A stretch of 64,000 nt of DNA from Dehalococcoidia bacterium (lineage in GTDB: Bacteria > Chloroflexota > Dehalococcoidia > Lucifugimonadales > UBA3495). Shown here piece after piece: positions 5,106 through 54,182 of the stretch. The first letter of the stretch is position 1; every line of letters starts with the position of its first letter. The notes below the pieces were generated by a model, which worked only from the letters and a program-made list of their open reading frames with translations, searched no databases and was not told where the DNA came from. The stretch is from contig DAOULH010000011.1 of assembly GCA_034420475.1 (NCBI GenBank), positions 12,762 through 76,761 on the forward strand, read 5' to 3'. The position numbers were made by a program, and so were the translations under genes.

Positions 5106-5738
5106 TTACGAATCCGTTCCGGGCACGCCCGTTTCGTCGCCCTCGCTGCCGGGGTCGCCGAGCAGGAATTCGCCCACGGTCAGCACCACGTCAGGGAAGG
5201 CGCGGGGGCTGATCCGGCCGTCGGCCGGGACTATCCGGCTGCTCCGGTAAGCGCCATCAACCGGGTCGTGGAAGGCTTCGACTTCGCGGGCGGGTACGTT
5301 GGCGATCCACACCTCGGGGATGCCGGCGGCAGCGTAGAGGGGTAGTTTCACGTCGTGGTCGGAACGCAGAGAGCTGTCTGCGATCTCGATCACCAACAGC
5401 ACGTCAGCCGGCGTGGGCCGGTTCCTGTGATAGTCCTCGCGGAGACGGACGATTGCGATGTCGGGTTCAGGAAGACCGTAATTGTTGAGGCGGACTGAGC
5501 TTTGTACGCGGACCCAGGCGCGGTCGCCTATTCGGAGGATCAGATCTTTGCTCAACCGGGTGGTTCCGTCTTCGTGGGGTGGTCCGATGGGAGGCATTAC
5601 GAATATTTCTCCGTCCAGCAACTCGACGCGCTCTTCTTCGGCCAGGATGCCGGCCTCGGCCATGGCGCAGTATTCTTCCACGGTGAAGCGGCGCCGGGTC
5701 GGCGCGGCGGTTTGTGCTGGCAAGGCGGTTGTCGTCAT
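5106..5738 (-). CDS. Uma2/DUF820 family endonuclease (tandem copy 1)
   Basis: RRRFTVEEY, ERVELLDGEI, PEPDIAIV, LLVIEIADSSL..D..VKLPLYAAAGIPEVW. Confidence 0.85.
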   Translation of the reverse strand: MTTTALPAQTAAPTRRRFTVEEYCAMAEAGILAEEERVELLDGEIFVMPPIGPPHEDGTTRLSKDLILRIGDRAWVRVQSSVRLNNYGLPEPDIAIVRLREDYHRNRPTPADVLLVIEIADSSLRSDHDVKLPLYAAAGIPEVWIANVPAREVEAFHDPVDGAYRSSRIVPADGRISPRAFPDVVLTVGEFLLGDPGSEGDETGVPGTDS

Positions 5739-5747
5739 GGCGTCACC

Positions 5748-6332
5748 TTATTCAAGGAGGAAGTCGCCCACGGTCAGTTCGACGTCGGGGAAGGCGCGGG
5801 GGCTGATCCGGCCGTCGGCCGGGACTATCCGGCTGCTCCGATAAACGCCGTCAACCGGGTCGTGGAAGGCTTCGACATGGCGGGCGGGTACGTTGGCGAT
5901 CCAAACCTCCGGAATGCCCGCTTCAGCGTAGCGGGACAATTTGGCCTCACGGTCGCGCCGTAGCGAGCTATCGGATACTTCAACGATCAGTAGCACGTCG
6001 GTGGGGGTGGGATGCGCCCGGTGGTAGCCGTCTCTCAATCGCAGCACGGCGATGTCGGGAACGGGTAGGTTCAGATCATCGAGCTGAACCGGGCCTTGAA
6101 CCCGGACGCGAGCACGACCTCGCAACGAAAACTTGAAAAAATCATCGAATTGGTCTGTGCCGTCCGCGTGAGGTGGTCCGATGGGGGGCATGATGAATAT
6201 TTCTCCGTCGAGCAACTCGAGACGCTCCTCGGGATGAAAAATGCCGGCTTGGTCCATGGCAAGAACTTCGTCCACGGTGAAGCGGCGCCGGGTCGGCGCG
6301 GCGGTTTGTGCTGGGGCGGCGGTGGTCGTCAT
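5748..6332 (-). CDS. Uma2/DUF820 family endonuclease (tandem copy 2)
   Basis: RRRFTVDEV, ERLELLDGEI, PVPDIAVL, LLIVEVSDSSL..DREAKLSRYAEAGIPEVW. Confidence 0.85.
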   Translation of the reverse strand: MTTTAAPAQTAAPTRRRFTVDEVLAMDQAGIFHPEERLELLDGEIFIMPPIGPPHADGTDQFDDFFKFSLRGRARVRVQGPVQLDDLNLPVPDIAVLRLRDGYHRAHPTPTDVLLIVEVSDSSLRRDREAKLSRYAEAGIPEVWIANVPARHVEAFHDPVDGVYRSSRIVPADGRISPRAFPDVELTVGDFLLE

Positions 6333-6348: not shown

Positions 6349-7632
6349 CTAGATGCTGCCGGAGAGCTGGTTGATCACCAACCCGGTGGGGAGTTTGGGG
6401 TAGAAGAAGGTGGACTTGGGCGGAAGGCGGTTGCCGGCGCTGACGATCTGGCGGAAGGGTTCCAGCGGGAAGGGCTTGAGCAGGATGGCCGCCTGCTGCT
6501 CGCCGACGTTGACCTGCTGGACGATGGCCGCCTGGTCGGGGCTGTAGTCGATGTGCTGGGCCAGGGCGTCTCCGAGTACCGGCAACAGCACCCGCTCCTG
6601 CAGCACCCACGCTTCGGATACCGCCAACTGGCCCCATGAGGTCCAGTCAATATCCGACCGCAGGGTGTGGATGGTTGGTGGGGCGTCGGCCCAGAAGACG
6701 GCGAAGCAGTGGGAGTTTTCGCCGATGCGGGCAACGTCGGCCACTGCCGCCTCGGGCGTGATGTCGGGGTTCAGGGGACGCGAGTCGAAATACTCGTCCA
6801 TCCCGGCGCGCACGGCGTCAAGCTGCTCGGCCGACATGCCGCCGGCGACGCGGTGGTAGGGCAGCAGGAGCAGGCCGGGGTCGTCGAACTCGACCAGGGT
6901 CATCATCACGTAGTTGCTGGCGGCCGCGTCGTCGGTTTGCTCAGCGTCGGGGCGGCTGCGCCGGTAGCGGAGCGCGGCCTCGTAGCGATGGTGGCCGTCG
7001 GCGAGGAAGACGGGGCGACCGGCAAAGCTGTCGATGATGTTCGACTGGATCGCCGGTTCGCCGATGTGCCAGAACTCGGCGGTTCCGCCGGCGGGCGTGG
7101 CCGCGGTCGCGTCCGCAGGTACGGCGACGATGGCATCGAATATGCGTTGCAGGTCGCCGGCCGCGTCGCGGTACAGGGACATGATGGGGCTGAACTGGGC
7201 CTGGCAGGCGTCCAGCAGCGCCACCCGATCCAGCACCGACGGCTCGCGGGTGAACTCGTGGGGCAGAACGGAGCCGGCGTCGTAGTCCTCGACCAGCACG
7301 TCGGCGAACAGCCCCAGGTGCTGGTAGCGGCGTCCGCCAAAGTCGTAGGCGTGCCGCATCAGGTAGAAGGAGGCCGCGTCGTCCTGGCGTATGACGCCGT
7401 CGGCGAGCCAGCGTTGGAACAGTCCTGCGGCCTGCTGATAGCCGGCCTGCGGGTCCACCGGGTCCGGTTGCTCGCCGCCCTCGAGATGGACCGCGTTGTA
7501 GGGGCTGCGCTGCTGCAACTCGGTCTTCAGCTGCGGTCCGATCATGTCGTAGGGCGGGCAGATGACAGAGGACAGGTTGCCCACTGAGGTGGGATCGTAG
7601 CGGCAGCCGCGGAAGGGTTTGATGGTGGCCAT
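6349..7632 (-). CDS. DUF1015 domain protein
   Basis: N-terminal IKPFRGCRY, PPYDMI, LPHEFT, FLADGHHRYEAA and C-terminal LPPKSTFFYPKLPTGLV, all characteristic of DUF1015. Confidence 0.85.
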   Translation of the reverse strand: MATIKPFRGCRYDPTSVGNLSSVICPPYDMIGPQLKTELQQRSPYNAVHLEGGEQPDPVDPQAGYQQAAGLFQRWLADGVIRQDDAASFYLMRHAYDFGGRRYQHLGLFADVLVEDYDAGSVLPHEFTREPSVLDRVALLDACQAQFSPIMSLYRDAAGDLQRIFDAIVAVPADATAATPAGGTAEFWHIGEPAIQSNIIDSFAGRPVFLADGHHRYEAALRYRRSRPDAEQTDDAAASNYVMMTLVEFDDPGLLLLPYHRVAGGMSAEQLDAVRAGMDEYFDSRPLNPDITPEAAVADVARIGENSHCFAVFWADAPPTIHTLRSDIDWTSWGQLAVSEAWVLQERVLLPVLGDALAQHIDYSPDQAAIVQQVNVGEQQAAILLKPFPLEPFRQIVSAGNRLPPKSTFFYPKLPTGLVINQLSGSI

Positions 7633-7848
7633 GGCAGGTTAGGCTCCGGGTTCTCGGTTGGGTTGCATTATACGATAGCGGGCCGGGTCGGCATTGGAGT
7701 GTGTCCCGTGGCTCTGCGTCGGCCGAGCAGACGGTGAAGCTCGGTGCGCATGGTATATTGCGAATAAGTAAGGACTGAGCGAGTACGACAAGTCGCGACC
7801 ACCCGGAGCTTGGATCAGCTGTGCAAGCCGTATGAAGGGCAGGCTATC

Positions 7849-9237
7849 GTGAAAAAGGGATTACTGTTCAATGTTGTAGCGTTGCTGATGGCGCTGTCGT
7901 TGGCATGGGGCGGCCTGGCTGCGGCCGTCAGCGCCTACGGGACCGATGCCCCTTTGCAGGCCGCCGTGATTACGCGCGCGCCACTCTCGGCGGTTGACGA
8001 TGTTGATGAGGATGACGAGGGGGATGACGCTGTTCCTCCCACGGACAACGATGGGATCCAGACGCCGTACACCGACAACGACGGGGTAGACACCACCGAC
8101 AACGACAACATCGACACGCCATATACGGACAACGACGGTGTTGATACCCCCATCGTAACGGACGGCGATGGCACGGACAGCGACGGTATAGATACTCCAC
8201 CCACGGACGGCGACGGGTTTGACACACCTTACACCGATGGCGATGGCGTGGACACCACGGATAACGATGGGATCGAGACGCCGTATACGGACAACGACGG
8301 AGTAGACACCACCGACAACGATAACATCGACACGCCGTACACGGATAACGACGGGAACGATACGGTGGAGGACACCGACGATGATGGCACCGACAGCGAC
8401 GGTATCAACACGCCGGCGACGGACGATGACGGGGTAGAAACGCCGTACACGGATGGGGACGGAGTGGATACCACGGACAACGATGGGATCGAGACGCCGT
8501 ACACCGACAACGACGGCGTGGATACTACTGACAATGACGGCATCCATACGCCGTACACTGATAACGACGGTGTCGACACCCCCGTTGTGACCGACAACGA
8601 TGGCACTGACAGTGATGGCATAAACACACCGACAACTGACGGTGACGGTATAGAAACTCCGTACACCGACAATGACGGCGTGGATACCACCGACAACGAT
8701 GGGATCGAGACACTGTACACTGACAACGACGGCGTGGATACCACCGACAATGACGGCATCCATACGCCATACACTGATAACGACGGCGTCGACACTCCCG
8801 TTGTGACCGACAACGACGGCACGGACAGTGACGGTATAGACACGCCGACGACTGACAATGATGGGGTAAATACTCCCTACACCGACAATGACGGTGTGGA
8901 TACCACGGATAACGACGGTATAAACACTGCAACCGCCACCGATAATGATGGTACGGACAGTGATGGCGTCAACACTCCAGCAACTGACAACGACGGTGTA
9001 GACACGCCCACGCCCTCGCCGGTGACACCCTCGCCGGTAACGCCCTCGCCGGTAACGCCCTCGCCGGTGACACCCTCGCCGGTGACGCCGTCGCCAGTAA
9101 CACCCTCACCAGTAACGCCTTCGCCCGCAACGCCATCGCCCGCAACGCCATCGCCCGCAACACCCTCACCGGTAACGCCGTCGCCACAGACACCAATTTC
9201 TGGCAGCGATGACTCGGATGACGACAGCGGCAGCTAA
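7849..9237 (+). CDS. Secreted acidic Asp/Thr-rich tandem-repeat protein (36 TDxDx units, 12 TPSP units)
   Basis: ORF 7810..9237; likely GTG start 7849 giving signal peptide VKKGLLFNVVALLMALSLAWGGLAAAVSA. Repeats are conserved at protein level with synonymous codon variation, which supports this strand and frame. Confidence 0.8.
   Translation: MKKGLLFNVVALLMALSLAWGGLAAAVSAYGTDAPLQAAVITRAPLSAVDDVDEDDEGDDAVPPTDNDGIQTPYTDNDGVDTTDNDNIDTPYTDNDGVDTPIVTDGDGTDSDGIDTPPTDGDGFDTPYTDGDGVDTTDNDGIETPYTDNDGVDTTDNDNIDTPYTDNDGNDTVEDTDDDGTDSDGINTPATDDDGVETPYTDGDGVDTTDNDGIETPYTDNDGVDTTDNDGIHTPYTDNDGVDTPVVTDNDGTDSDGINTPTTDGDGIETPYTDNDGVDTTDNDGIETLYTDNDGVDTTDNDGIHTPYTDNDGVDTPVVTDNDGTDSDGIDTPTTDNDGVNTPYTDNDGVDTTDNDGINTATATDNDGTDSDGVNTPATDNDGVDTPTPSPVTPSPVTPSPVTPSPVTPSPVTPSPVTPSPVTPSPATPSPATPSPATPSPVTPSPQTPISGSDDSDDDSGS
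8041..9009 (+). repeat. Coding tandem repeat, TD(N/G/S/D)D(G/N) units of 5-11 aa
   Basis: Counted 36 units in the translation, with a 72-aa higher-order period. Confidence 0.9.
9010..9189 (+). repeat. Coding 15-bp tandem repeat, 12 x TPSP(V/A/Q)
   Basis: ACRCCNTCRCCNGTR-like units counted directly in DNA: 7 TPSPV, 3 TPSPA, 1 TPSPV, 1 TPSPQ. Confidence 0.95.
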
Positions 9238-9243
9238 CACTCC

Positions 9244-10464
9244 ATGGCCACTGAGCCCGCGATAAGTTCCTCAGACATTCTGAATGATCTCCGCGCCGGC
9301 GGACCTGAGACCAGTTGCGGCGATCTGCATGATACCGACTGGGCCTGGCAGGTGTATTGCCGTCAGCACGGAAAGCCGGAGGCAAATCCGCTGGAGGTGC
9401 GGGTCCTGGAGATCTCACGGGTTAGGGGCGGAACTGCCCGGGCGACGTATGAAGCGGAGTGGCCGGAAGACGTCTACATCCCCAACCAGCGGTTCACCCT
9501 GTTGCAGGAAGAAGTCGGGGAAGTTCGGGTCTTTCGTTTCCCTGATGATCCGGACCTGCCCGGGCTCGCCAGGGCCGCCAATCCCGAAACCGCGCTCACG
9601 CTCGTCAAGAAGCACGTGATGTCCATTCCTCCACGGAGGATAAGGGTGGAAGTGGTCCGGTATCGGCCGGGCAATCATGCGGTGCTGCGTCACCGGCTCG
9701 GCAAGGCCAGGTTCTACGCCCGCGTGATGAAGCCGCCCGCGATGGCCGCATTTTTGGACGCGGCCGAACTGGTGGCCCGCTCGAGTTTTTCGGTGCCCAG
9801 GATCGCCGGGCGCTGGCGCGAGGGGGCGGTGGTGTGGACGTCTGAAATACCGGGGCAAAACCTCCGGCAATACATCCGAGCCGGCAAACAGCTGAACCCC
9901 GACGCTCTGTTGGATGGCCTGGAGAGCCTATGGTCCGTTCCGGCGGAGGCAGGCAACGGTCGTCCCTTCAATCTGTCCGGCCGCTACCGCGGCGCTAAAC
10001 GGGAGATCAAAAACGCCGTGCGGGACCACGTTGAAGCCCGCTGGGAGTTTGACCGTGCGGTTGCGGCCCTGGATCCCTTCATCCGGTCCTGGCAGCCCAC
10101 GAGCACGGCCCACAATGACTTCTACGACGACCAGATGCTGGTATTACCGGATGGGCGCCTGGTGCTGGTGGACTTCGAGGAAACGGGCCCCGGGGATCCG
10201 ATGCTGGACGTGGGCAATTTCCTGGCCCATCTCCGGTGGAGCGCCATGACCGGCACCGAGAAGCGGGCGGCCATCAGGATGGAGTACCACGGAATCTTCA
10301 AAGACGCTGCCCTGGACCGCTTCGGCTGGGACGAGCATGAACTTGCCCGGCGCGAGGGTATCTGCCTGTTCCGGACGTGCATCTTTCCGGTGATACGGCC
10401 GAGACCGGACTGGGCGGAGAGACTGCAACGTGGCCTCGCCCTGGTAATTGAGGCGATAGGCTGA
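9244..10464 (+). CDS. APH/choline-kinase-fold phosphotransferase
   Basis: HNDFYDDQML (Brenner-like HxD loop) and LVDFEETGPGDPMLDVGNFLAHL. Starts 6 bp after the repeat-protein stop. Confidence 0.75.
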   Translation: MATEPAISSSDILNDLRAGGPETSCGDLHDTDWAWQVYCRQHGKPEANPLEVRVLEISRVRGGTARATYEAEWPEDVYIPNQRFTLLQEEVGEVRVFRFPDDPDLPGLARAANPETALTLVKKHVMSIPPRRIRVEVVRYRPGNHAVLRHRLGKARFYARVMKPPAMAAFLDAAELVARSSFSVPRIAGRWREGAVVWTSEIPGQNLRQYIRAGKQLNPDALLDGLESLWSVPAEAGNGRPFNLSGRYRGAKREIKNAVRDHVEARWEFDRAVAALDPFIRSWQPTSTAHNDFYDDQMLVLPDGRLVLVDFEETGPGDPMLDVGNFLAHLRWSAMTGTEKRAAIRMEYHGIFKDAALDRFGWDEHELARREGICLFRTCIFPVIRPRPDWAERLQRGLALVIEAIG

Positions 10465-10527
10465 AAGCAACACCCGGGCATTGCGCCGGGAACGGCTGCT
10501 CGGAATGCAGCGCGTAGCGGGTCGCGG

Positions 10528-11481
10528 CTAGTCGTTCGGGATTAGCGGCATCACCTCGCGGGAGAAGCGTTCCATGGCCTCCTGCTGCTGGGCGGCGCTG
10601 TCGGCGGGGAAGCTGAAGATGAAGTGCCGCACGCCCAGGTCCTGGTACTGGCGGAGGTCGGCGGCGATCTGCTCGGGGATGCCGGACACCATGCGACGGT
10701 CAGACTGCGGCGCGTCGTGGAAGACGCAGTCGGTGCTGAAGACCAGGTCCACGGCATCCTCGGCGCGGCCGGCGCGGGCGCTGACGCGGCGCAGGCGGGC
10801 GATCTTTTCGGCCAGTTCCTCGGGCTCGAGGATGGCCGGCGGACGCAGGCCGATGGGCATCCAGCCGTCGCCCAGGGTAGCGGCGCGGCGGATGGCCGGG
10901 TTGGTGTGGCCGCCGATCCAGATGGGCGGGTGCGGTTTCTGCACGGGCTTGGGCAGGAAGCCGGCGCCGCTGATGTCGTAGTGCTCGCCGTGGAACTCGG
11001 GGTTGTCGGAGGTCCAGAGTTCCTTGAAGATCTGGATGTACTCGTCGGTGACCTGGCCGCGCTGAGCGTAGGTGTCGAGGCCCATGGCCTGGAACTCCTC
11101 TTCCATCCAGCCGACGCCGGCGCCCAGGATCAGGCGGCCGCCGCTGAGCACGTCCAGGGTGGCCAGGATCTTGGCGGTGAGCACGGGGTTGCGGTAGGGG
11201 AGGATGAGCACGTGGGTGCCCAGCTTGACGCGGGTGGTGCAGCCGGCCAGGAAGTTCAGCGCGGCCAGGGGCTCGAAGTAGGTGTTGTCGCGCTGGAAGG
11301 GGGCCACGCCGTCGGCGGCGTAGGGATAGAAGGACGAGACCTCGTGGGGGATGATGATGTGGTCGCTGACCCAGACGTGGTCGAAGGACAGGTCCTCGGC
11401 GCGCTGGGCGAGGCTGCGCAGGTTATCGGGAGAGGCCATGGTGCCCCGGCTGGGCAGGGAGCATCCAAAGGTGACGGGCAT
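10528..11481 (-). CDS. LLM-class, probably F420-dependent oxidoreductase (Rv2161c/TIGR03619-like)
   Basis: Likely start ATG 11481 (MPVTFGCSLP). HVWVSDHII, FEPLAALNFLAGCT, ATLDVLSGGRLILGAGVGW, PIWIGG. Confidence 0.85.
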   Translation of the reverse strand: MPVTFGCSLPSRGTMASPDNLRSLAQRAEDLSFDHVWVSDHIIIPHEVSSFYPYAADGVAPFQRDNTYFEPLAALNFLAGCTTRVKLGTHVLILPYRNPVLTAKILATLDVLSGGRLILGAGVGWMEEEFQAMGLDTYAQRGQVTDEYIQIFKELWTSDNPEFHGEHYDISGAGFLPKPVQKPHPPIWIGGHTNPAIRRAATLGDGWMPIGLRPPAILEPEELAEKIARLRRVSARAGRAEDAVDLVFSTDCVFHDAPQSDRRMVSGIPEQIAADLRQYQDLGVRHFIFSFPADSAAQQQEAMERFSREVMPLIPND

Positions 11482-11593
11482 GGGATTTGCCTCCGTGGTG
11501 GTATGCGAGGTCAGGTTCGGCTGGCTGAATTGGGCCGATGCTATACTACCCAATACCGTACCCGCAACCGCGCTGCGATTGCCGAGAAAGCCA

Positions 11594-12046
11594 ATGCCGC
11601 CCCGAATCCGACGCGAGGCTCCGACCCGACGTGATGCCCGCATCCACAAACATCTGGCCCAGGCCAAAGAATATTGGATCAACGCGCCCCTGGAATTGTC
11701 CCGAGGAGACGTCTGCCAAGCCGGCGAGAAGGGTTGGGGCGCTGTCGCCCAATTGACCAAAGCGGTGGCTGCGCTGCGCGGCTGGGATCACTACGACCAC
11801 GTGGCAGTGCTGGAAGCAATCACCGCGCTGGCCGGGGAACTGCCGGAGCAGGCGGAGCGCATCTACCGCGGCAAGGGCGCGGCGGAAAGGTTGCACGGCA
11901 ACTTTTACGAAGTGTACATGACTGCTGACGAAGCGGTGTTCGCATTGGCCGATGCCCGCCCGCTCCTCGGAATTCTCTGGGGTCTGCTGCCCGTCGAGTA
12001 CACGGGAGGGGCAGGTTTCGCCGAATGGGTTGAGAGGGAAGAATAA
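11594..12046 (+). CDS. PaREP1-like (HEPN-fold) protein, tandem copy 1
   Basis: Likely start ATG 11594. GDVCQAGEKGWGAVAQLTKAVA..RGW.H..H and AERLHGNFYE motifs. Confidence 0.7.
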   Translation: MPPRIRREAPTRRDARIHKHLAQAKEYWINAPLELSRGDVCQAGEKGWGAVAQLTKAVAALRGWDHYDHVAVLEAITALAGELPEQAERIYRGKGAAERLHGNFYEVYMTADEAVFALADARPLLGILWGLLPVEYTGGAGFAEWVEREE

Positions 12047-12048
12047 CC

Positions 12049-12501
12049 ATGCCGCCCCGAACCCGTCGCGAAACGCCAACCCGCCGGGATGCCCGCATTC
12101 GCAAGCACTTGCCGAAGGCCAAAGAATATTGGTCTAAATGGCCGGCGTATCTGGCCGAGGGCGATCTTTGCCAGGCCGGCGAAAAGGGTTGGGGAGCCGT
12201 GGCTCAACTGGCCAAAGCGGTGGCGACCCACCGAGGATGGAACCATTTCGGCCACGAAGAGATCCGGGTCGTCATTCGCCAACTCGCCGACGAATCCAAT
12301 AACCGTGAAGCCATCAGGCGGTCTTTGATGTACGCCGAAGTGCTGCACGGCAATTTTTATGAAATCAATCTGGATCAGGTGGACACAGAGTTGGCGCTGA
12401 CGGATGCGAAGTTCCTGATGTCAGTGTTGTGGAACCTTCTGCCGCAGGAGTACACGGACGGGATGTCGTTTGACGATTGGATTACATCCGGTGACAATTG
12501 A
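12049..12501 (+). CDS. PaREP1-like (HEPN-fold) protein, tandem copy 2
   Basis: GDLCQAGEKGWGAVAQLAKAVATHRGWNHFGH and AEVLHGNFYE. Confidence 0.7.
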   Translation: MPPRTRRETPTRRDARIRKHLPKAKEYWSKWPAYLAEGDLCQAGEKGWGAVAQLAKAVATHRGWNHFGHEEIRVVIRQLADESNNREAIRRSLMYAEVLHGNFYEINLDQVDTELALTDAKFLMSVLWNLLPQEYTDGMSFDDWITSGDN

Positions 12502-53872: not shown

Positions 53873-53948
53873 GCCCCGGTGGCGCAATTGGCAGCGCAGC
53901 CGATTTGTAATCGGCAGGTTAGGGGTTCGAGTCCCCTCTGGGGCTCCA
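53873..53948 (+). tRNA. tRNA-Thr(TGT)
   Basis: GCCCCGG acceptor, GCCGA-TT-TGT-AA-TCGGC anticodon arm, GGTTCGAGTCC T-arm, encoded CCA. Confidence 0.95.
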
Positions 53949-53994
53949 AATCGAAACCGTCGCATCTGGATCACGGGTCCGGGAGTTAACAAAT

Positions 53995-54082
53995 GGAGGG
54001 GTGGGTGAGTGGTTAAAGCCACCAGACTGTAAATCTGGCGCCCTGACGGGCTTCGCAGGTTCGAATCCTGCCCCCTCCACCA
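53995..54082 (+). tRNA. tRNA-Tyr(GTA)
   Basis: GGAGGGG/CCCCTCC acceptor, CCAGA-CT-GTA-AA-TCTGG, long variable arm, GGTTCGAATCC, CCA. Confidence 0.96.
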
Positions 54083-54107
54083 CTTTATCGAAATCAGCAT
54101 TCCATCC

Positions 54108-54182
54108 GCCCAAGTAGCTCAGAGGTAGAGCACGTTCTTGGTAAGAACGGGGTCGGCGGTTCGATTCCGCCCTTGGGCTCCA
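54108..54182 (+). tRNA. tRNA-Thr(GGT)
   Basis: GCCCAAG acceptor, CGTTC-TT-GGT-AA-GAACG, GGTTCGATTCC, CCA. Confidence 0.96.

Follow-up and report, generated by a model that had tools for sequence, protein, structure and literature searches.

Disordered repeat surface proteins encoded beside a dedicated enzyme are known from the SRR adhesins with GtfA/B (accessory Sec) and the SD-repeat proteins with SdgA/SdgB. GtfA/B and SdgA/SdgB are cytoplasmic and modify Ser/Thr residues of the repeats before export; to our knowledge, such dedicated pre-export modification of repeat surface proteins is known for glycosylation, not for phosphorylation. In the Bacillus spore coat, the atypical kinase CotH is encoded beside the repetitive CotG/CotB proteins, which it phosphorylates at many sites for their assembly into an outer layer. 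The targets of Fam20C (phosphophoryn with its DSS repeats, osteopontin, and caseins) are Asp/Ser-rich, disordered, and secreted, and their function needs dense phosphorylation at acidic sites. Finally, two proteins with the APH fold, LxmK (class V lanthipeptide) and TvaE (thioamitide), bind or phosphorylate peptides of ribosomal origin.

Here, a gene pair from a Dehalococcoidia bacterium is described, in which an acidic Asp/Thr-repeat protein is encoded directly upstream of an APH-fold kinase (Table 1). Coordinates are positions within the window, i.e., the whole 64-kb stretch of DNA that was analysed, where the pair occupies 7849-10464. The first-pass annotation had placed the kinase gene 6 bp downstream of the repeat gene, with a DUF1015 gene divergent from the pair and an LLM gene convergent with it, and both the sequence and Pfam bear this arrangement out. 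The repeat ORF starts with GTG at 7849; an alternative in-frame TTG at 7810 is also open, but homologous proteins begin where 7849 would lie, with MKK, MKR, or VRK ahead of the hydrophobic segment. In the window, both genes lie in the same frame, with the TAA stop (9235-9237) plus two codons between them. Stop-codon readthrough was nevertheless rejected as a general mechanism because the frame relation between the genes varies across loci. The plus strand of 7633..7848 shows no sigma-70-type consensus. The spacer between the convergent kinase and LLM genes is 63 nt long and contains the hairpin at 10473..10490, a possible terminator; terminator-like sites are no more numerous than expected from shuffled sequence. 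Rfam recognised only three tRNAs in the window, far from the pair. A defence system was also considered and rejected, as PADLOC returned no matches.

Table 1. Coordinates of the gene pair, its parts, and its flanks in the 64-kb window
Feature	Position	Strand	Remarks
DUF1015 gene	6349-7632	minus	Divergent from the pair
Divergent intergenic region	7633..7848	+	Putative promoter and 5′ UTR for both genes, by position only
Repeat-protein gene	7849..9237	+	462 aa plus stop; acidic Asp/Thr-repeat protein, predicted secreted
Sec-type signal peptide or N-terminal anchor	7849..7935	+	aa 1-29, VKKGLLFNVVALLMALSLAWGGLAAAVSA; by sequence inspection
Conserved A-A-V-I-T-R-A-P motif	7960..7983	+	Contains R43
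Poly-acidic run DDVDEDDEGDD	7996..8028	+	aa 50-60; in nearly all homologues
TDxDG array, 34 motifs	8041..9006	+	Core T-D-x-D-G-phi-D-T/S; spacings 10, 8, 11, 5 aa
TPSP(V/A) block, 12 units	9010..9186	+	Thr/Pro-rich extended linker
Ser/Asp C-terminal tail	9199..9234	+	SGSDDSDDDSGS
Spacer CACTCC	9238..9243	+	6 nt from repeat-gene stop to kinase ATG at 9244; consistent with translational coupling
APH/choline-kinase-fold kinase gene	9244..10464	+	406 aa; Pfam APH, AlphaFold, Foldseek
Strand beta3 ARFYARVMKP	9706..9735	+	Invariant R160 at the expected position of the ATP-binding Lys; equivalence to Lys inferred
Catalytic loop H290-N-D292-F-Y-D-D-Q297	10111..10134	+	Brenner-type motif, Gln replacing Asn
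Metal-binding D310-F-E312	10171..10179	+	Equivalent of DFG/choline-kinase DFE; conserved stretch GPGDPMLDVGNF next
GC-rich hairpin	10473..10490	.	Terminator-like site on the minus strand; possible shared terminator
F420-type LLM gene	3′ end 10528	minus	Convergent with the pair

A species-representative genome set holds 246 confirmed kinase loci, 80 of which were examined; their kinase homologues show 47-92% identity. It had been proposed from the window sequence that the pair is a self-contained two-gene unit, and the test set in advance was whether kinase homologues consistently have a repeat-protein gene upstream. A TDxDG-repeat gene was found directly upstream on the same strand at 73/80 loci (73/78 informative); the rest comprise three loci with a related acidic Thr/Asp/Pro protein in that place, two truncated by a contig end, and two without a partner. 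The 73 loci carry 2-119 TDxDG motifs each, in one plus-strand frame no more than 2.6 kb upstream; the opposite strand has none, and the remaining ~11 kb has 0-3. In the reverse look-up, an APH gene lies immediately downstream of 4/4 repeat-protein homologues (SLH-, fn3-, LysM-, and plain-type). About 45 of 69 loci have an intergenic gap of 0-13 nt, the modal value being 5-6 nt. All-against-all ORF clustering of the 80 loci revealed no third conserved gene within 7 kb on either side (a lyase, transferase, phosphatase, or exporter as a third partner was rejected on these grounds), and the next commonest family, DUF1015, occurs at 11 loci. DUF1015 and LLM were likewise rejected as parts of the system, being kept only in ~12 close relatives with rearranged order. 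Moreover, two fusion clusters, P0198 and P0207, which share less than 50% identity, unite both halves in frame in one polypeptide. With the neighbourhood kept in both search directions, the flanks unconserved, and two fusions, the pair is a real, conserved two-gene module. It occurs in Chloroflexota of the Dehalococcoidia/SAR202 type and in other members of the phylum, sponge symbionts among them. Short-read assemblies break at the repeat gene, and the partner is thus probably under-reported in MAG catalogues and easily missed.

The same data bear on whether the adjacency has any functional meaning, since the kinase might have a housekeeping substrate that has nothing to do with its neighbour, a fast-evolving surface protein encoded on the same transcript. 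The functions of both proteins are putative, one of three kinase paralogues in one genome is partnerless (L069), and at L027 the kinase gene is intact after a mobile-element insertion removed the partner. However, the pairing is kept where all flanking genes differ and is found from either gene, the 0-13 nt spacing is conserved, and two divergent in-frame fusions exist, making a meaningless adjacency very improbable.

The anatomy of the repeat protein agrees with its first description as a signal-peptide protein built of TDxDx units, 12 TPSP units, and an acidic tail, with no anchor. By inspection, its N-terminus comprises V-KK, a hydrophobic stretch of 16-22 residues, and an AVSA end; the order is KK, then LLFNVVALLMALSLAW, then GGLAAAVSA followed by Y, with a putative small-x-small site between the last two residues. 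A W-G/S-G motif of this N-terminal segment recurs in homologues. In the AlphaFold model, the helix 2-30 (pLDDT 73-94) is the sole confident element. Asp makes up 22.9% and Thr 18.4% of the protein, and the mature part contains 114 acidic residues versus a single basic one, R43, and no Cys. There are 36 TDxD motifs, of which 34 are TDxDG, and the array has a higher-order unit of 72 aa repeated four times. Tandem Repeats Finder detects a 216-bp unit (x4.1, 8039-8915, score 949), within which a 54-bp unit is nested, and a 15-bp unit (x11.7) at 9010-9185, nucleotide identity between the 216-bp units being 0.76-0.88. Elsewhere in the window, the motif pattern occurs once in all six frames, so that its presence at the array exceeds chance. 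No Pfam or NCBIfam domain passes the threshold in the repeat protein, and no C-terminal hydrophobic anchor was detected; a Pfam Luciferase_3H match was rejected as below cut-off and compositional. The pLDDT of ~40 throughout the repeats indicates predicted disorder, and the TPSP block (pLDDT 66-71) lacks secondary structure in the model. A folded Ca-binding solenoid was rejected on this pLDDT of ~40, a value that says nothing about the Ca2+-bound state.

A motif logo built from 1398 sites in 70 loci reads T-D-x-D-G-phi-D-T/S, with Thr at position -1 conserved at 94% and Thr/Ser at +6 at 96%. Position -2 (five residues before Gly) is Gly, Pro, Thr, or Tyr, and Asp is outside the five commonest residues there. 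The DxDxDG-like motif read initially from the window therefore has to be replaced by this one, and Pfam TSP_3 finds no match in the window protein (E <= 0.01) or in six relatives (E <= 1). An Arg stands 2-16 aa ahead of the first acidic run in 57/70 partners, and in 63/70 the final 12 residues are at least 50% Ser+Asp; 52 of the 70 end in Ser and 16 in Asp. Cys accounts for 0.2% of residues across the family. Partner variants in other lineages carry LysM, SLH, or fn3 domains, after which the poly-acidic run is also found. These variants support the secreted location suggested earlier, and the repeat protein is therefore taken to be extracytoplasmic.

The product of the second gene matches Pfam APH (PF01636) with 41 bits against a cut-off of 23.2, and its AlphaFold model has a pLDDT of 84.9 and a pTM of 0.80. 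Of the kinase homologues, 23/24 match Pfam APH as well. Among the 228 matches that Foldseek gave in the PDB at E <= 0.001, the best 50 are almost all APH-fold kinases. The top match is a mycobacterial maltokinase (E 1.3e-11, TMq 0.47, identity 15%); methylthioribose, choline, and glucosamine kinases are also among the best 50 of 228. The alignments with maltokinase and actinobacterial glucosamine kinase span the whole chain, including the extra N-terminal domain, while TM-scores of ~0.47 speak for the generic fold only. By sequence, no solved homologue is close (best E-value 0.08). The kinase has no signal peptide.

Residue conservation was scored on an alignment of 24 homologues. R160, the putative counterpart of the ATP-binding Lys, lies on the model strand 155-162, with a basic residue at 163; the putative alphaC Glu (E174) is not conserved. 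The catalytic loop has N, D, Y, D, D, and Q in all 24 sequences, and the same holds for D310 and E312; the loop H is nearly invariant. The invariance of the catalytic-loop Asp, Gln, and DFE ligands at 47-92% identity argues for retained catalysis. The model of the peptide Ser/Thr kinase LxmK (NF038156) is the top curated family for 24/24 kinases (best E 1.2e-08), but the window kinase scores 30.5 bits against a cut-off of 315, over residues 284-341 only, that is, the catalytic core. A sister clade reaches up to 59.7 bits, and the SrkA-like and CotS models come next. The NCBIfam models for maltokinase (TIGR02457) and GlcN kinase (NF041273) match neither the window kinase nor the 24 members at E <= 0.1, and Pfam CotH has no match in the window kinase. 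Judged from sequence, the kinase is a new APH-superfamily clade with conserved putative catalytic residues.

The structural affinities suggest that the enzyme could be a small-molecule kinase acting on a sugar, an amino sugar, a choline/ethanolamine-type or another hydroxyl compound, with the product decorating or processing the repeat protein (for example, through its phospho-sugar or phospho-alcohol modification) or serving a linked envelope chemistry. Besides the nearest structures, weak Pfam Choline_kinase matches over the D310-F-E312/GPGDPMLDVGNF stretch in 20/24 kinases point this way, and so do the DFE motif and the catalytic-loop Gln, which we take to recall maltokinase/choline-kinase signatures. 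Thr/Pro-rich linkers are, moreover, commonly O-glycosylated. On the other hand, the 80 loci have no conserved transferase of any kind (nucleotidyltransferase, glycosyltransferase, or other) within 7 kb on either side, the repeat protein is the sole conserved partner down to translational coupling and fusions, and the curated maltokinase and glucosamine-kinase models miss the window kinase, leaving the resemblance at the level of the generic fold. A small-molecule substrate is accordingly unlikely on balance, though it is the strongest competitor.

The LxmK affinity, for its part, recalls a RiPP-like pathway. LxmK-like phosphorylation of Thr residues in a multi-core precursor, here the repeat protein, with elimination or excision to follow, would then yield small modified peptides. 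The substrate is indeed highly repetitive, with short near-identical units, and its gene stands directly upstream of the modifying enzyme. Yet the LxmK score is one tenth of the cut-off; a lyase, cyclase, protease, or exporter is not conserved nearby at the 80 loci; Cys is absent from the window protein and nearly so from the family; and a Sec-type signal on the partner, with LysM, SLH, and fn3 domains in other lineages, is typical of surface proteins. Such a pathway is hardly probable.

A different role is suggested by TvaE, which is among the Foldseek matches listed and was solved with a leader peptide (PDB 8jsu), illustrating that APH-fold proteins can be peptide-binding subunits. The kinase-fold protein may thus be mainly a binding partner instead of a multi-site kinase. 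As a cytoplasmic escort, it would bind the emerging acidic tail or the Arg motif, maintain the polyanion in an export-competent or metal-free state, or pass it on to the translocon, with at most one regulatory phosphorylation. The atypical ATP site (R160 for Lys, alphaC Glu not conserved) fits this, the kept short tail and single-Arg motif look like docking elements, and tight translational coupling would co-localise synthesis. However, the invariant catalytic-loop Asp and Gln and DFE metal ligands argue for retained catalysis, and a single docking site leaves the conservation of Thr within the repeats unexplained; a mainly escorting function is improbable.

The reading taken as most likely is modification of the repeat protein itself by the neighbouring enzyme. 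The conservation of the repeat Thr/Ser, their acidophilic context, the predicted disorder, and the kept S/D tail make this protein substrate-like; the T-D-x-D context is acidophilic in the manner of CK2-type sites. The conservation of the pair and the LysM, SLH, and fn3 variants of the partner also speak for this reading, as do, on the enzyme side, the conserved catalytic residues, the lack of a signal peptide, LxmK as the best curated family, and TvaE among the Foldseek matches listed. In its specific form, to which we give somewhat less than an even chance, the reading holds that the pair is an operon-like module of an exported disordered polyanion and a dedicated cytoplasmic APH-fold kinase, which phosphorylates its partner before export. 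The presumably co-transcribed first gene would give a product with, in order, a Sec-type N-terminus, the single-Arg motif, the poly-Asp/Glu run, TDxDG motifs in varying number, the Thr/Pro linker, and the Ser/Asp tail. The second, translationally coupled gene would give a kinase dedicated to this product and acting as an acidophilic protein Thr/Ser kinase. The pre-protein might be phosphorylated while still in the cytoplasm, ahead of Sec export or in its course. Candidate sites are the invariant Thr that precedes D-x-D-G, the Thr/Ser that follows this motif, and/or the tail Ser. A parallel would be the SRR and SD-repeat adhesins, which are glycosylated in the cytoplasm. Outside the cell, in the presence of seawater Ca2+, the product may serve as a cation-binding, extended surface or matrix protein, which in other lineages LysM or SLH domains would tether to the wall. 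Direct phosphorylation of the repeat protein and Ca2+ binding would both be plausible.

Several observations speak against a kinase acting on this protein. The top Foldseek matches among the best 50 of 228 (maltokinase, methylthioribose kinase, and choline kinase) are small-molecule kinases, and weak Pfam Choline_kinase matches occur in 20/24 members; the LxmK score of the window kinase lies far below the cut-off and covers the catalytic core only; the ATP site departs from the norm, R160 standing where the beta3 Lys is expected, the alphaC Glu not being conserved, and Gln taking the place of the catalytic-loop Asn; and with a pI of 5.1-9.7, the kinase is not consistently basic, as binding of a polyanion might require. 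The positive-inside rule places the kinase domain of the fusion proteins outside, which misfits a cytoplasmic ATP-dependent step. We also know of little bacterial precedent for phosphorylation ahead of Sec export. The strongest version, in which a dedicated acidophilic APH-fold kinase densely phosphorylates an exported, disordered Asp/Thr-repeat protein into a phosphophoryn-like Ca2+-binding surface or matrix polymer of sponge-associated Chloroflexota, is rather doubtful. A mineral-related role, as raised in the first-pass annotation, finds no support: the only hosts confirmed here, Aplysina aerophoba and Ircinia ramosa, presumably build no calcareous skeleton.

Searches of the literature on the motif, on sponge Chloroflexota repeats, and on APH-type protein kinases found nothing on the pair, in line with the initial view that no such architecture had been described, and searches by the accessions of the window's sample likewise gave no result. 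Within the reach of these searches, the module is undescribed, while its mechanism is what we infer. If the kinase acts on its neighbour, the pair would be a bacterial counterpart of the eukaryotic secretory phosphoproteins, and if dense phosphorylation is true, the first bacterial “secretory phosphoprotein” system; the polymer could then serve attachment, cation handling, or host-matrix interaction in sponge-associated Chloroflexota. The module marks a large uncultured Chloroflexota group that includes dominant sponge symbionts, and it may therefore bear on life in the host matrix. Whatever the mechanism, neither the kinase clade nor the TDxDG module has a curated family, so both are worth defining as families.

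The locus resembles each of its closest known counterparts in part. Thrombospondin type 3 repeats are short and Asp/Gly-rich with D-x-D-G, like those of the window protein, and TDNDG occurs in those of thrombospondin-4 (PMC2200072). The spacing there is DxDxDG, whereas the window repeat reads DxDGxD, is Cys-free, and is predicted to be disordered. The TreS/GlgE context of the maltokinase Mak/Pep2 is absent at the pair. The window kinase shares its fold with LxmK and TvaE, but, unlike in LxmK systems, no lyase/cyclase partner is conserved at the 80 loci, and the repeat protein is Cys-free, ~460 aa long, and predicted to be exported. The SDDSDDDS tail resembles, by inspection only, the DSS repeats of phosphophoryn; Fam20C, however, is a eukaryotic Golgi-lumen kinase of an unrelated family. 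As with CotH, an atypical kinase lies beside a low-complexity repetitive protein, but the kinase-like fold of CotH differs, and CotG is basic, Ser/Lys/Arg-rich, and assembled inside the mother cell, whereas the window protein is acidic and predicted to be Sec-exported. Compared with the SRR and SD-repeat systems, SecA2/SecY2 and Gtf genes are not conserved within 7 kb of the pair, an LPXTG anchor is lacking in the window protein, and the partners end in an S/D tail rather than a sorting signal. The repeat is T-D-x-D-G instead of SASx or SD, the lineage is Chloroflexota, and the enzyme has a kinase fold in place of the glycosyltransferase fold of GtfA/B and SdgA/SdgB. The logic proposed for the pair, modification of repeat Ser/Thr by a dedicated cytoplasmic enzyme before export, would nevertheless be the same.

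Genome comparison shows robustly that the pairing of an acidic Asp/Thr-repeat protein gene with an adjoining APH-fold kinase gene is real. A degenerate-pattern scan, run with one genome per species, confirmed kinase loci in 246 cases, of which the 80 best were fetched with 7-kb flanks. In 73 of the 80, between 2 and 119 TDxDG-type motifs lie in a single frame of the plus strand no more than 2.6 kb upstream of the kinase gene; the opposite strand carries none, and the remaining ~11 kb, read in all six frames, 0-3. The first-pass annotation had proposed to test whether a repeat protein is the conserved upstream neighbour of kinase homologues, and these counts bear this out.

There are seven negative loci. 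Two (L045, L054) are truncated by contig ends, and three (L066, L070, L072) encode an acidic Thr/Asp/Pro-rich partner (the repeat protein upstream of a kinase homologue) in which the strict motif is missing. Another, L069, is the third kinase paralogue of one genome. In L027, an IS630-like transposase and another gene are inserted upstream of the kinase; this mobile-element insertion apparently removed the partner in recent times. Positions 3956-6440 of L027 are occupied by a 421-aa gene together with an IS630-like transposase pair in place of the repeat gene, and the kinase ORF is intact. L066, L069, and L070 belong to one metagenome-assembled genome (MAG), OY764543.1, labelled Trueperaceae, whose three kinase copies match the query with equal identity. 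The partners of two copies are acidic, TP/D-rich, and devoid of TDxDG; upstream of the other copy, on the opposite strand, lies an RCC1-like gene.

The two genes appear to form a unit of their own, as the first-pass annotation had it. All-against-all clustering of ORFs from the 80 loci returned two widely shared families and no more, the kinase in 75 loci and, under low-complexity masking, the repeat protein in 46; DUF1015 came next, in 11 loci. The genes flanking the window pair recur in about a dozen close relatives only and are differently arranged there. Among loci with an unambiguous kinase start, about 45 of 69 have an intergenic gap of 0-13 nt, most often 5-6 nt. The two genes keep no fixed frame relation across loci, so the in-frame arrangement of the window genes is incidental. 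No promoter-like or terminator-like site was found between the two genes in the window. A reverse look-up starting from SLH, fn3, LysM, and plain repeat-protein homologues found an APH gene directly downstream in four cases out of four. Moreover, in two protein clusters sharing less than 50% identity, P0198 (706 aa; locus L083, 6001-8121) and P0207 (632 aa), an acidic signal-peptide protein is fused in frame to the kinase, the halves being joined by an Arg-rich linker (RTKRRRRS or RTRRPRRAPPP). That the adjacency is without meaning is, with such close spacing and such fusions on record, very improbable, even with L027 and L069 counted in its favour.

All 80 loci come from MAGs, labelled mostly as Dehalococcoidia, SAR202, or Chloroflexota, with some Caldilineaceae or Anaerolineales and one Trueperaceae; the last label looks doubtful, and the genome may be mis-binned. 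Several loci belong to sponge symbionts: SB0661_bin_34 (L043) is reported as a Chloroflexota symbiont of Ircinia ramosa, and the APA_bin genomes originate from Aplysina aerophoba (PMC11706023). A kinase identical to that of the window is present on L081, a 55.6-kb ENA short-read scaffold. Since this scaffold starts a short way upstream of the kinase gene, the assembly breaks within the repeat gene; partner genes are probably under-represented in short-read MAGs.

Features of the window bearing on the gene pair and its surroundings
Feature	Position	Strand	Remarks
Uma2-family (PF05685) tandem paralogues	5106-5738; 5748-6332	minus	N-termini near-identical, MTTTA.PAQTAAPTRRRFTV
Repeat protein gene	7849 (GTG)-9237	plus	ORF, 462 aa
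R43 motif A-V-I-T-R-A-P	7960-7983		only basic residue of the 433-aa mature protein
216-bp unit	8039-8915		repeat gene; 4.1 copies, 54-bp unit nested inside (Tandem Repeats Finder)
15-bp unit	9010-9185		repeat gene; 11.7 copies (Tandem Repeats Finder)
Kinase gene	9244-10464	plus	406 aa; starts 6 nt past repeat-gene stop (TAA CACTCC ATG); Pfam APH above threshold
Kinase R160	within 9706-9735	plus	invariant; occupies expected beta3 ATP-binding Lys position
Kinase C374, C379	10363-10380	plus	two invariant Cys (C-x4-C), C-lobe helix
LLM ORF	10528-11760	minus	410 aa by mechanical call; long, poorly matching N-terminal extension
PaREP1/PaREP8-family (PF05942) tandem genes	11351-12046; 12049-12501	plus	
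tRNA cluster	53873-54182	plus	Thr(TGT), Tyr(GTA), Thr(GGT)

The gene order described in the first-pass annotation, with DUF1015 divergent upstream and an F420-type luciferase-like oxidoreductase convergent downstream, was recovered, as were the signal-peptide repeat protein with its TPSP units and acidic tail and the adjacent APH kinase. About a dozen relatives likewise have Uma2 homologues flanking the pair. PF05942 bears an archaeal family name and is found here in a Chloroflexota genome; its genes are kept in close relatives, L081 having two copies of 150 aa each. The LLM is called as 317 aa in L081, so its true start in the window is probably near 11480; part of the 410-aa ORF overlaps the first PaREP1 call.

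The window repeat protein begins with a basic/hydrophobic N-terminus (VKKGLLFNVVALLMALSLAWGGLAAAVSA) and contains 34 TDxDG motifs and 12 TPSP units before the C-terminal tail SGSDDSDDDSGS; Asp makes up 22.9% and Thr 18.4% of its residues. Past the N-terminal helix, acidic residues number 114, R43 is the only basic residue, and Cys is absent. Elsewhere in the 64 kb, scanned in six frames, the motif pattern occurs only once more. In an AlphaFold model built on a 20-sequence alignment, residues 2-30 form the sole confident helix; pLDDT is ~40 over the TDxDG repeats and 66-71 over the TPSP block, which lacks secondary structure, the Ca2+-bound state lying outside what the model addresses. The repeats fall outside all Pfam and NCBIfam families, TSP_3 included.

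Partners extracted from 70 related loci have a common ordered architecture. An N-terminal segment of K/R and hydrophobic residues, often with a W-G/S-G motif, is followed by a short one-Arg motif, A-V-I-[S/T/P]-R, the conserved Arg standing 2-16 residues ahead of the first acidic run in 57 of the 70. Then come a poly-Asp/Glu run, TDxDG motifs in variable number, a Thr/Pro-rich block (TPSPA, TPTPD, TVTPQTATPA, and others), and finally a short Ser/Asp tail: Ser and Asp together account for at least 50% of the last 12 residues in 63 of 70, and the chain ends in Ser in 52 partners and in Asp in 16. The repeat core is T-D-x-D-G-phi-D-T/S (phi, hydrophobic), which corrects the DxDxDG-like motif raised initially: when every locus is given the same weight, the 1398 DxDG sites show conservation of 94% for Thr(-1), 91% for Asp(+5), and 96% for Thr/Ser(+6). 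Array length evolves fast; one relative, its kinase 92% identical, has a partner of 236 aa versus 462 aa in the window. In other lineages the acidic module stands behind LysM, SLH, or fn3 domains or a ~350-aa domain without assignment, and this joining to LysM/SLH/fn3 domains places the family outside the cytoplasm. The repeat protein is a polyanion, probably exported and predicted to be disordered, in which certain Thr and Asp positions are invariant. The ~350-aa domain follows the signal peptide and precedes the acidic module in L004, L017, L020, L022, L030, L034, L047, L053, L056, L071, and L077; its conserved stretches include YFD..A.Y.ILT.YGS.TE..LADFL, SNTLGHVHG.NTQ.ETVCTV, LGY.R.GWRK, and YE.RAY.MTAQAFDLYR, and its sole match is a weak fn3.

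Kinase homologues (575 matches in total) are uniform in length at ~406 aa and score at least 447 bits among the 120 matches listed. The kinase has no signal peptide and is of cytoplasmic type with conserved catalytic residues: 24 aligned members, 49-92% identical to the window protein, conserve the catalytic loop H-N-D-F-Y-D-D-Q, the D-F-E metal site, many Arg, and two Cys. In these members, the alphaC Glu is not conserved and the catalytic-loop Asn is replaced by Gln. A full HMM scan over 1.84 billion representatives gave 73 proteins at E <= 1e-30, with the family proper on top and then a fall to ~120-170 bits, mostly for 750-830-aa proteins. Six scanned proteins of this sister clade (P0255-P0350) hold two or three APH domains, and one bears an ABC-transporter membrane domain. 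The kinase thus represents a new clade of the APH superfamily. For all 24, the top curated family is LxmK, the class V lanthipeptide kinase, at ~30 bits (cut-off 315) and over the catalytic core only. LxmK is also the top NCBIfam match of two scanned tandem-APH sister-clade members, where it reaches 59.7 bits and SrkA-like and CotS models come next. The nearest curated relatives lean weakly towards peptide/protein kinases.

The AlphaFold model of the kinase (pLDDT 84.9, pTM 0.80) has a generic APH fold in Foldseek searches against the PDB, with mycobacterial maltokinase as the top match (E 1.3e-11, TMq 0.47), then methylthioribose kinase, the thioamitide protein TvaE with leader peptide, choline kinase, corramycin and macrolide phosphotransferases, glucosamine kinase, and YtaA; a sequence search for solved structures found none close (best E 0.08). 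The structures nearest to the model are small-molecule kinases, which favours a small-molecule kinase supplying a decoration of the repeat protein; the lack of any conserved transferase in the 7-kb flanks of the 80 loci weakens this reading, which we consider rather unlikely. A RiPP-like pathway, to which LxmK would point, is scarcely probable, with no further conserved component beside the closely spaced pair.

The reading to which we tentatively incline, giving it somewhat less than an even chance, is that the kinase directly modifies the adjoining repeat protein before or during Sec export, the exported product binding cations. T-D-x-D is a classic acidophilic context. The kinase would phosphorylate Thr of T-D-x-D and/or Ser of the tail in its neighbour; the conserved tail and the Arg motif may serve for docking or processing, and R43 could be such a site. 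Outside the cell, clusters of Asp and phosphate would capture Ca2+ or other cations and so make the chain stiffer, and LysM and SLH variants would retain it at the wall. This predicted phosphoprotein and Ca2+-binding reading is reasonable. The mineralisation idea initially put forward gained no support. Against direct phosphorylation stand the atypical ATP site, the variable kinase pI (5.1-9.7), and the topology of the fusions, whose kinase domain is predicted by the positive-inside rule to lie outside the cell. An atypical ATP site would also suit a mainly non-catalytic kinase-fold escort, which is improbable given the conserved catalytic residues.

Among known families, only membership of the kinase in the APH superfamily is upheld. 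LxmK fails on score, partner genes, and Cys, and maltokinase on profiles; the repeats depart from thrombospondin type 3 in the TSP_3 profile and in spacing, and the SRRP/Sdr systems are set apart by the lack of Gtf, aSec, or LPXTG here. Literature searches found no description of the pair, and apart from the generic APH domain no curated family covers either protein. In its logic, the pair resembles known systems in which a dedicated modifying enzyme is encoded beside its repetitive surface substrate, namely the serine-rich repeat adhesins with GtfA/B, the Ser-Asp repeat proteins with SdgA/B, and CotG with CotH. The product of the pair would be similar to eukaryotic Fam20C substrates such as phosphophoryn.
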